64,000 bases of DNA, taken from assembly GCA_951406725.2 (NCBI GenBank), contig OX597839.1:40858001-40922000 (forward strand). The letters run 5' to 3'. Positions 1-32,000 of this stretch are shown here, in pieces. Position 1 is the stretch's first letter; every line of letters starts with the position of its first letter. The position numbers and the translations under genes are program-made. This stretch comes from Octopus vulgaris. Taxonomy: Eukaryota. The notes beneath the pieces were generated by a model, which did no database searches, was not told the origin of the DNA, and was given only the letters and a program-made list of their open reading frames with translations.

Positions 1-584
1 TCCACACCACATACAATTAAGTGAAGATTAGTGGATAAATCCAAGCCACATCTTTTACCTTTTACTTGTTTCAGTCATTAGAAATGCAGCTTATGTATTG
101 CAGAAAGATCTCATATTCTTCTTAGATCCAACAATTCCAACACGCCGCTTAAATTCCAGATCTGAAATTTTTAGCAGGTGTAAACACATGGACAGTTTTC
201 TTTTATCGATTGAGTTGCTATCTCGCAGACTTCCACATATTTCTGTTATATTGTTGTATACCAATTCTCTACCAGTTGTACCTAATGTGCTTTCTGCAAT
301 CAGGGAAGACGAAAATCTTAGTTTTCTTGATCTCGTTTATCTTTCTCTCGTTCCAATTTTGCACTAACGCTCTTCACGTTTTTTTTTTCACGTTTTTTTT
401 TTTCACGTTTTATCGTATTTACTCGGTGACCGGCGTCCTTCTTTTTAAAATACATATATAACGCATAAGCAGAGTCTGAATGATTGCTTTAAGATACATA
501 GCGTATTTTATAAATATTGCTGTTCAATATCATGCAAGCATAAAACTATTGGTAGCTCTTCCGTTTATGTATAAAGACTGATTA

Positions 585-2925: not shown

Positions 2926-3495
2926 AAAATGTGTGTGTGTCTGTGTGTGTGTGTGCGTGCGCGCGTGCCCGTGTGTGTGTGTGTGTGTGTGTGTGTGTAA
3001 GTGGGTATATGTTAACAGTACACATATCGTCCTTAAAGTTCGTGGTGAAACGTGAAACAAGCCGTTTAGTGCAATATCAGATAATTTTGACGGCCATGTT
3101 GAATAATGGCGCCAATGAACTTTTAATAACGAAGAAAAAATCTTCCGGTTAAATATGGAGGAAATTTAAAAAGCACTTTCATAAGCTGCTGTGTTATCGG
3201 TTGTGAATACAAGTAAATGAACATATGTAGTCGAGCAACGCTTTCAGAATCTAGCATATACATGAATAACATACGCTTTACTGACAATCTAGATTTATTT
3301 ATAAAAGTGTATGTTTTTATATATAAAAGTGTATGTCAGTATGAATGTTTGTATGTGTACATAGGTATGATCTGATAATTTTATTAGTGTGTGAAAACGC
3401 AAATATTGAACCATCGATTCGTAAGTATATATCTTTGTATATATATATATAAACATCATTTGTCTATATGCTTGTATATGCGTGTGTGCATGTAT

Positions 3496-3618
<123 letters not shown>

Positions 3619-3652
3619 AAGAGAACTAAATTAGAGAGATAATATGTGTGTG

Positions 3653-3683
<31 letters not shown>

Positions 3684-3779
3684 ATACACACGTATGTATG
3701 TACTATGTAAGTAGATATATATAAAGATATATATAATGTATAATACGCACACACATATATGTGTATGTGTTTGTGTCTG

Positions 3780-20315: not shown

Positions 20316-20906
20316 TATATCAACGCTACATATTTTATATGTCAAAGCTAAAAGCAATTATTTCACCTCTCTTCAACCCAAAACCCCACCAATATAAAAA
20401 CCCTGCAGCATTTGCAGAGGGGAAAATTCAAAGGTTATGACCTATAATTTTTTCTACTTTCTTATTCAGTTCTCATTCCTGAGGCCCATAGAAAACTTTC
20501 GTTCCCCCTCAGAAATGCATAACGAAATAAACGAAACGTCAGTTATCAATATTAGGTCAGCTGCTTTCCACAATCCATCAACCAACCAGTATGCGAGAGT
20601 TTGTATTTAGCGTGGCAGAATAATATTCCCTTGAGGCGTTTTAACGCAGCCATGTTGTACCGTTTGAATATGTGTGTGTAGGTGTAAGCGTTACACACAC
20701 ACACACACACTCACTCACACACATATGTATATATACACATATACATATATATTTATAAATGCATATACACACATTTATATAAATGTATTTATGAATATAT
20801 ATGCACATATATACGTGTACATGTGTGTATATATATAAATGTATGTATGCATGTGTATGAATGCTTATATATACATATATGTATGTGTATATACATGTGT
20901 GTATGT

Positions 20907-21890
20907 ATACTAAATAATTAGGGTTCAGCAAAGATTTGCTTTACCACATACCGAAGTTTAGAAATAGCAGCCAAAAAACGTTAGCTATTTCTTCTACTTT
21001 AAAAAGGGACCAGATATTGATTGATTTTCCTTACTTTTTCCTCTCTGCCTGTGTGGATTGTCTTCAGGTATTTTGGTTTTTCTGAGAGTCCCTTTTTAAA
21101 GTAGAAGAAATAGCTAACGTTTTTTGGCTGCTATTTCTAAACTTCGGTATGTGGTGAAGCAAATCTTTGCTGAACCCTAATTATTTAGTATTACTTAAGT
21201 TTACCATGAAATGGTCCTTTTTTCATGCCGAATTCTACTTGGTGAAATTATTGATTACTTCTTAATTAATTAATTTTACCCTTTGTTATTATTGATAATA
21301 GAATTTTCTCCCAGATAAAAACTACAGATTTTTTTCTGTAGTAGCTTACTAGTAGATACACGAGGACGGGCAGGGGAGGGTAATTGAACCTCATTCATGT
21401 TTTGAATTCGGCGGTACTAACACTGAATATTATCTGTCTGATACCGTTAGGTGGAGAGATATGTTCAATTATTCCAGTACCTTCGAATTTAATATTTCAA
21501 TATTTAATTATTGATGGGGTCCTATGCTGAAGAGGAAAGCGGTTGGTAAAGTATAATTCTATATTCTTCATTCCAACCTAATTCCGAAACGTGCGTCCAT
21601 AGGTGACCAGATATTGATTGATTTTCGTTACTTCTTCCTCTCTGCCTGTGTGGATTGTTTTCCAAGTATTTTGGTTTTTCTGGGAGTCCCTTTTTAAAGT
21701 AGAAGAAATAGCTAACATTCTTTGGTTGCTATTTCTAAACTTCGGTATGTGGTAAAGCAAATCTTTGCTGAACCCTAATTATTTAGTATCACTTAAGTTT
21801 ACCATGAATTGGTCCTTTTTTCATGCCGAATTCTACTTGGTGAAATTATTGATTGCTTCTTAATTAATTAATTTTACCTTTTGTTATTAT

Positions 21891-21892
<2 letters not shown>
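20907..21892 (+). mobile_element. Non-coding HHR retroelement (family H3): ~597-bp unit as a 1.5-mer with a 5' inverted segment, ending in (TA)n
   Basis: Direct repeats 21008-21294 and 21605-21892; 20907-21010 is the inverse of 21088-21191; HHR lies just before the second repeat. Confidence 0.88.
21521..21603 (+). ncRNA. Type I hammerhead ribozyme with canonical core
   Basis: CCUAUG-CUGAAGA-GGAA..GGUUGG...CCAACC..UUCC-GAA-ACG(UG)CGU-C-CAUAGG; GUC site, predicted cleavage after 21597. Confidence 0.9.
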
Positions 21893-21955
<63 letters not shown>

Positions 21956-22794: not shown

Positions 22795-23034
22795 TCGCGT
22801 ATATTACGTTCCAACCCCGCCGCCGCGAAGTAGAAACATTATCGAACTGTATTTTTTTAATTATTTTTATAATTTGTATATATTTATTTATTATAAATGC
22901 AAAACACCACGGAGAAATCGACGTAAGCTTAAATAATAAACCGCGATAGGTGAACCGCGATAGGTGAACCGCGATAGGCGAACCGCGATAAGTGAACCGC
23001 GATTGGTGAACCGCGATATGGCAAGGGATTACTG
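22795..23034. mobile_element. Tigger/pogo-type MITE end with six 14-bp subterminal repeats
   Basis: (aaccgcgataggtg) x6 at 22939-23020, ending gggattactg|TA, the reverse of a CAGT-starting TIR. Confidence 0.7.
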
Positions 23035-31599: not shown

Positions 31600-32000
31600 A
31601 GAACATGAAACCCTTGGTGGTCATCACAGTGTCTTTGAACACACACACAATTATGTAGTATGTTCTACGACCACACATGTGAAGTGCAAAAAGAAAAACA
31701 TTATATACCAGATTAAGTGCCAGGAAGGGACTTGCGCGGTTATCCCAGAGTCCTATATTGGTGAGACATCTAGGAGCATCAATGATAGGTTCAAAGAACA
31801 CCTGGACAATTTTACTGAGATAAAACCAAACTCCATCTTCTATAAGGATGCTGTTGACTGCCACAACGGCTCCTTAGGGAGACTTAGGTTAGACATCCTA
31901 TCTACACATGCCACTGATGAAATGCTGAGGCAAGTCAACTAAGTTGTCTTTATACAGGAATACAAGCACACCCTCAGCCGTATATCCGAATGGGGTAACA
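31600..32000 (+). pseudogene. Penelope-like element GIY-YIG endonuclease fragment
   Basis: KCKKKNIIYQIKCQEGTC...SYIGETSRSINDRFKEH..LDIL..LRQVN*VVFIQ: hallmark PLE GIY-YIG motifs with an internal stop. Confidence 0.88.

Follow-up and report, generated by a model that had tools for sequence, protein, structure and literature searches.

A dispersed non-coding hammerhead repeat in Octopus vulgaris whose insertions resemble those of PLEs

The insertion described here carries a hammerhead ribozyme motif just upstream of its second direct repeat, and its own 5' end lies close to the equivalent of the predicted cut. This raises the question of whether self-cleavage set that end, and more generally of what kind of RNA was copied into DNA and by which kind of enzyme. 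The insertion occupies positions 20907-21892 of the window (the whole stretch of 64,000 nucleotides that was analysed) and consists of an inverted arm and a partial tandem of a ~597-nt unit, flanked by TA-type microsatellites: a TA/TG tract on the left (20860-20906) and (TA)n on the right (21893-21955). We call one continuous run of element sequence an arm, so that an insertion has one or two arms, and we number positions so that +1 is the base that directly follows the predicted cut, window 21598. The inverted arm (20907-21010, minus strand) comprises 104 nt of the unit and ends at the short (S, +192) start point. It is 99% identical to repeat 1 and 97% identical to repeat 2, and it overlaps repeat 1 by the GAC at 21008-21010, the microhomology that joins both arms. 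The plus-strand arm begins with the first direct repeat (21008-21294, or +8 to about +294 of the upstream unit) and continues through the single-copy, non-coding middle of the unit (21295-21520) and a type I hammerhead motif (21521-21603) into the second direct repeat (21605-21892), which is the 3' end of the insertion. The direct repeats are 95.1% alike, with a period of 597 that becomes 598 past a 1-nt indel. Window 21605 is the eighth base of the predicted 3' product and, with the GAC overlap, the 5' end of the window copy falls at +8 to +11. The partial tandem of 597 bp, the equivalence of 21008 and 21605 just past the cut, and the joining of the inverted segment through GAC were thus all found as the preliminary description had reported them.

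The second repeat includes a structured 3' domain (21690-21892, plus strand) that holds both start points, namely the S end of family copies at +192 (21789) and, after a "tail" of ~101 nt (21790-21892), the long (L) end at +293 to +295. This region folds far better than its shuffles (z -6.3), and the whole unit, at 34% GC, also folds better than shuffles (z -5.1). By analogy with the role described in PMC11167929, the structured domain is likely the part bound by the mobilising enzyme. The inverted arm probably represents a second cDNA whose synthesis was primed on the opposite strand of the target. The view that there is no meaningful open reading frame held up: the longest stop-to-stop frame of the element has 68 aa, a Pfam scan of six of its frames gave no match at the cut-off (two weak matches to short frames were sub-threshold), and a frame listing, a translated search and the Pfam scan all lacked an RT + GIY-YIG open reading frame.

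To place the window copy among its relatives, we searched the genome (2.8 Gb, 227 contigs) for exact matches, which count arms rather than insertions and are lower bounds. A 26-mer close to the 3' end matched 766 times, a 24-mer from the tail 718 times, a 19-mer at +16 136 times and the 5' half of the ribozyme of the window subfamily 45 times, and the reversed control patterns matched nowhere. The window copy is therefore one of a dispersed, abundant, protein-less repeat family, in which the unit measures 565-599 nt from cut to cut in five loci. A narrow literature search found neither this family nor a count of short-long pairing. A sister family, ~74% alike in the 3' part and with a 555-nt period, is present at L436, L237 and L260. 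At L436 (1440-2956; G000:C2:149.446-149.447 Mb) it forms a trimer of units 96% alike, whose hammerhead has a U3-A8 core variant; in front of the trimer stand ~170 nt that do not belong to the unit, contain TGACGTC and a TATA-like word, and might be a promoter.

The hammerhead motif of the window has the type I order of CUGANGA, GAAA and NUH and is open at helix I. Its core boxes are CTGAAGA (21527-21533), GAAA (21586-21589) and GTC (21595-21597), with cleavage predicted after C21597. Stem I has 6 bp (21521-21526 with 21598-21603), stem II (21534-21585) has 4 bp with a G-C closing pair and is then extended, and helix III consists of two pairs and a palindromic loop (palindromic stem III at 21589-21596). 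The intact core, the 6-bp stem I and the G-C-closed, extended stem II are accordingly where they had been placed, and the claim of a self-complementary stem III is borne out by folding energies: the palindrome ACGUGCGU self-pairs over 8 bp at -8.8 kcal/mol, and the family majority form ACGCGCGU at -13.3 kcal/mol. The lowest-energy fold of the monomer is a non-active one, at -17.7 kcal/mol against -15.9 for the forced hammerhead fold, a gap of 1.8 kcal/mol. Such folding predicts slow cleavage for a single hammerhead and more efficient cleavage when two of them dimerise through the palindrome.

With a hammerhead descriptor we found 2 motifs in the 64-kb window, where 60 local shuffles averaged 0.017. 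In an Rfam search no family reached its gathering score, and none of the matches at E<=10 was to a hammerhead; these matches were all sub-threshold, hairpin-driven microRNA ones among them. The preliminary description's word "canonical" is thus earned by motif and covariation and not by an Rfam match. We assessed covariation in 46 motifs, mostly intact, that were hand-chosen out of 134 distinct ones to span the subfamilies, a set in which the shuffle control is inflated by relatedness. Helix I exists in at least five paired versions across the family; in the 46 rows, four of its six pairs have changed on both sides and 96.7% of its cells are paired. The palindrome of helix III is 97.8% paired in the 46 rows with little covariation, and the core G-C of helix II is invariant in them. 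The hammerhead fold is conserved, then, and stem I covaries between subfamilies, which supports the earlier reading of a genuine hammerhead; its palindromic stem III is of a kind known to favour dimers. The majority palindrome is ACGCGCGT (79 of 134 motifs, some rows being mis-registered), and the window's ACGTGCGT is found in 8 of 134. Because ACGTGCGT is also the form in all three units of the sister-family trimer, this minority form need not be decay. Unrelated hammerhead families at L265, L267, L268, L272, L275 and L280 have a GAAACGCGCGTA palindrome in common, so that helix III pairing between families is possible in principle.

Metazoan type I hammerheads with a short palindromic helix III, as described in PMC4209133, resemble the element in their 6-bp helix I, in G10.1-C11.1, in a helix III of 1-2 bp with a palindromic loop and in an extra base before helix II in several subfamilies. 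The dimer-dependent hammerhead motifs of newt and axolotl treated in PMC7229834 belong, like the element, to this group with a short palindromic helix III. Unlike those metazoan type I motifs, the element has a long, extended helix II, with ~52 nt between core boxes, and matches no Rfam hammerhead model.

We next consider whether cleavage sets the 5' ends of the family, since the preliminary description had attributed the template's 5' end to self-cleavage and had named the mapping of genomic 5' ends as a test. Samples blind to 5' ends were taken as the first 100 places in position order for each of three exact patterns (the third sample minus its last 4 places), and arms were mapped on eight natural long arms (four for the third sample). 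One arm abutting an N run and three duplicate rows were excluded, the pooled count also omits the internal anchors of the third sample, and ends beside TA tracts are uncertain by a few bases. We found that 5' ends are scattered across the unit. Of the 134 arms reaching the cut in the pooled, de-duplicated set, 112 continue through it and 22 end in +16..0, a window that ranks 6 of 26 for 5' ends, with +67..51 and +101..85 as high or higher. Cleavage therefore does not set most 5' ends. As a family rule the self-cleavage origin of the 5' end is not supported, the mapping having gone mostly against it, and a cut-adjacent 5' end is at best a minority pattern in the family. In one sample 15 of 96 arms end in +16..0, against 8.6 expected from the upstream rate (P 0.024), an excess of less than two-fold; in the other 7 of 39 do so, against 2.9 expected in the same way (P 0.025) or 3.8 from the downstream rate (P 0.08). 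The rate of ~1.0-1.1% per nt in +16..0 compares with 0.46-0.55% per nt upstream and is similar to the rate just downstream. Elsewhere in the unit, the highest of the 26 windows is -290..-306, close to the upstream unit's long start point, where 6 of 19 arms at risk end (short and long arms mixed), and the ribozyme body (-35..-68) has the fewest 5' ends (4 of 95). A collision of two primers on one RNA was rejected, as the 5' ends of long arms do not pile up at +192 across 96 anchors.

Does the window copy itself nonetheless belong to the minority? On that account, the upstream hammerhead cleaved its RNA, copying ended by run-off at +1, and the joining of the arms at GAC cost a few bases. Apart from the raised rate in +16..0, the evidence for this comes from the longest arms. 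Nine arms reach the second site in a ranked DNA search, and four of these (L001, L003, L008 and L023, the window copy included) end in -2..+8, while one ends at ~-18 and four run 60-110 nt further. If 7% per arm is assumed, P is 0.002; without the window copy, three of eight long arms end there and P is 0.015; the comparison was made post hoc on a small number of arms. Ends at +1 to +3 are also seen in a few short arms, and L181, L207, L185 and L190 end at or just after the cut, two of the short-arm ends with small fold-backs (L181) and one reiterated (L207). Against this account stand the read-through of most arms and a rank for +16..0 that is not above that of downstream windows. In addition, several ends at +4..+11 have short matches to the usual end point of the inverted arm (L001, L154, L157, L311, L315) or to (TA)n, so that microhomology alone could enrich these ends, and the anole element is described in PMC11167929 as having no RNA reads that end at the cut. 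We thus regard a cleavage-made end as possible, though rather unlikely, for the window copy, where the stopping of four of nine longest arms at the upstream cut speaks for it and the general disregard of the cut against it.

What, then, was the template? Read-through junctions have the same 13-nt spacing in 137 of 137 cases, which means that the RNA was uncut or exactly re-ligated. Contigs from four runs presumed to be RNA cover most of the stretch and some bridge the cut; they are mute on level, strand, ends and circles, and we give them no weight as evidence. Across 20 tandem loci (two of them duplicates of each other), repeats are 4.2% apart within a locus and 8.5% apart between loci, minor alleles are mostly common to both repeats of a locus, and, of 12 variable columns, not one sets the first repeat apart from the second. 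Such concerted repeats are seen in at least five subfamilies and, together with the lack of a repeat-specific column, suggest that a single unit has repeatedly given rise to the tandem anew. There is one ribozyme site in the window copy, there are two in each of five family loci, and none of the loci fetched has three; the sister family holds its trimer with the 555-nt period. We infer a template that exceeded one unit and kept the ribozyme junction intact, either an uncut multimer or a ligated circle. The proposal of an RNA template made of a multimeric or circular ~597-nt unit is upheld in so far as seamless junctions and concerted repeats point to more than one unit, as a multimer or a circle.

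The 3' ends are ordered in a way that the 5' ends are not. We compiled 316 de-duplicated terminal ends from loci L001-L210 and L261-L320, with a query that ended at +295. Of these ends, 155 lie in +180..+200 (S; 115 exactly at +192) and 143 in +280..+300 (L), with 18 elsewhere, and TA-type repeats follow 276 of the 316. The 108 two-armed insertions comprise 90 S+L, 5 S+S and 3 L+L pairs and 10 with an unclassified end, so that 90 of 98 classifiable insertions, like the window copy, are S+L pairs (P 5e-19 against free choice). The family thus shows a partial tandem with an inverted 5'-truncated copy, two fixed 3' ends with a one-sided tail, and a microsatellite target without poly(A). Insertions of Penelope-like elements (PLEs) are described in PMC8557442 as having a partial tandem, an inverted 5' copy, a tail at one end and a microsatellite bias, the last of which is linked there to the CX2-5CxxC linker of Neptune. 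The passages of PMC11167929 on the anole PLE protein report that in vitro it cuts both strands of AT-rich DNA and uses two internal start points, which define the tail, with the start site being the same on either strand. Because that assay gave no strand difference in start site, it leaves the strict S+L pairing unexplained. The preliminary description's account of the insertion was right as to RNA origin and missed the simpler frame, namely that a partial tandem, an inversion and a (TA)n target together make up the signature published for PLEs.

The element is a non-coding repeat of ~565-600 nt per unit with a conserved hammerhead motif, and we consider it likely that it was copied from RNA into (TA)n by a PLE RT and GIY-YIG nuclease acting in trans. 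We favour PLE-type mobilisation because the fixed 3' ends, the S+L pairs and the (TA)n targets match the architecture in PMC8557442 and the start points in PMC11167929; counting against it are the failure of our search to find a homologous autonomous partner and a tail of ~101 nt, as compared with 30-40 in the published cases. By this mechanism the nuclease would cut both strands of a (TA)n tract, and both cut ends would act as primers, each at one of the internal start points (+192, +293). Every cDNA would stop after a roughly geometric length, at about 0.5-0.9% per nt, and the two cDNAs would be joined by short microhomology, GAC in the window copy. The template would be the uncut multimer or ligated circle described above, and the hammerhead would likely process multimeric transcripts rather than make the 5' end of most insertions. 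A more specific form of this mechanism, which we think rather unlikely, has a hammerhead-processed circle of ~597 nt as the template, one dimeric Penelope enzyme that primes both target strands at two fixed RNA points, and the longest linear templates bounded by the upstream cut. If it were true, the element would be a clean substrate for the role of the PLE hammerhead and the origin of inverted ends.

Several other explanations deserve to be weighed against copying by a PLE enzyme in trans. The closest is a full retrozyme cycle, in which two hammerheads free a monomer, a host ligase closes it, and a PLE enzyme copies the circle past the junction into 1.3- to 1.6-mers; since only the template differs, such a cycle is compatible with the preferred explanation. 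The seamless junctions, the concerted repeats, the conserved fold, the five loci with two ribozyme sites and the sister-family trimer would all be expected of it, and RNA circles have been shown for coral, mussel and axolotl retrozymes (PMC7229834) and a circular template proposed for PLEs (PMC4209133). Yet uncut multimeric transcripts or homology-guided self-insertion would leave the same pattern in DNA, ribozyme mutants are reported in PMC11167929 to have no effect on insertion by the anole enzyme in vitro, and eight of nine Xenopus retrozyme dimers are given as uncut in 10.64898/2026.07.22.740005. We consider the full cycle a serious possibility that falls somewhat short of an even chance.

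Mobilisation of a SINE-like element by a LINE, with the inversion as twin priming, is improbable in our view. That no PLE partner was found is in its favour, and 5' truncation with inversion also arises in LINE-driven insertions. Twin priming yields non-overlapping parts of one RNA, whereas both arms of the element start at fixed internal points and overlap in sequence. The family also lacks poly(A), and partial tandems together with type I hammerheads are PLE traits (PMC4209133, PMC8557442). Least probable by far is a repeat that arose at the DNA level, by local duplication and a repair-made inversion or as a DNA transposon, and in which the hammerhead is incidental. Microhomology at the joints and the microsatellite-rich, unstable flanks would suit such an origin. 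Against it, the copies are dispersed, number in the hundreds and have fixed 3' but scattered 5' ends, stem I has undergone compensatory change, and the motif is far above chance; we rejected it as contradicted by the end pattern and the covariation.

If a PLE acts in trans, the same genome offers a candidate. It is rich in GIY-YIG matches, of which 150 were scored out of 6136 candidates; many lie in 781-aa open frames, and intact 781-aa frames with RT, C-x4-C-xx-C and GIY-YIG exist in many copies that end in (TA)n. One of them, L241:430-5672 (G000:C16:20.83 Mb), encodes RT, the C-x4-C-xx-C linker and GIY-YIG, has many near-identical copies, and carries 456-nt end repeats that are 99.3% alike, with a (TA)n flank. 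By the linker criterion it is apparently a Neptune-type PLE, intact and young. It has no DNA homology to the element, and an incomplete search of 50 GIY-YIG loci (of the 150 scored among 6136 candidates) found no autonomous partner with such homology. As element and PLE share no DNA homology, the helper has to be inferred, with the Neptune-type element as the likeliest one. PLE copies beside the element at GIY-YIG loci were rejected as partners, being separate insertions in one (TA)n tract, as were PLE fragments near element loci in a translated search (including the one beside L321), which are chance neighbours inserted separately. In L241 an upstream frame overlaps the RT frame, a possible frameshift, many TGACGTC words lie past the stop, and the end repeat contains a hammerhead-like motif with U3-A8.

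How the element relates to known systems depends on which traits are compared. The EN+ PLEs, and those of the Neptune clade in particular (Craig et al. 2021, PMC8557442; Frangieh et al. 2024, PMC11167929), have, like the element, a partial tandem, an inverted 5' copy and a one-end tail, and likewise two internal start points, (TA)n targets and, upstream of these start points, a hammerhead within the repeated part; they differ in having an RT/GIY-YIG frame, which the element lacks, and a tail of 30-40 nt rather than ~101. Animal non-LTR retrozymes (Cervera and de la Pena 2020, PMC7229834) share with the element a non-coding, AT-rich, head-to-tail unit, one type I hammerhead per unit and co-resident PLEs, and a preprint has argued that they are PLE derivatives (Li, Clavereau, Pollet 2026, 10.64898/2026.07.22.740005). 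The element has the lack of coding capacity and the low GC (34%) of a retrozyme; another retrozyme trait, that the sequence resembles the end repeat of a PLE in the same genome, was not found in the incomplete search of the 50 GIY-YIG loci. Its unit is longer than the 170-400 nt given in PMC7229834 and lies within the 51-972 bp of 10.64898/2026.07.22.740005. In contrast to retrozymes, the family takes the form of dispersed, truncated 0.1- to 1.6-mers with inversions. Li et al. describe an "active" retrozyme as one with at least two consecutive hammerheads; the window copy has one, five other loci of the family have two, and the sister family has its trimer. Judged by its sequence, the element appears to work like a non-autonomous PLE and fits the animal non-LTR retrozymes, with incomplete membership.

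The class of element is already published, and the element is a further example of it. What the family contributes is numbers: 5' ends that mostly ignore the cut, so that the ribozyme is not the usual 5' boundary; arms that nearly always differ in start point; seamless junctions; and concerted repeats. These bear on two open points about PLEs, the purpose of the hammerhead and the origin of the tandem and inverted ends, and the element provides a short RNA for testing both, in the same genome as an apparently recently active Neptune-type protein.

Other repeats in the window and at the loci fetched touch on the same subjects. A weak translated match to the PLE GIY-YIG domain at window 31634-31981 (24% identity, E 3e-4) is probably an old remnant. 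A second, unrelated hammerhead partial tandem lies on the minus strand at window 58170-57530, with its motif near 57811-57751 and 142-nt repeats that are 85% alike and ~450 nt apart; a similar motif occurs in L222/L242. Another hammerhead partial tandem without open reading frame, with a different palindrome and a unit of ~465 nt, was seen on the minus strand at ~3130-3740 of the reversed locus L254. A 14-nt tandem repeat of 5.7 copies at window 22939-23018 is of a kind seen inside Helitron/MITE-like repeats.
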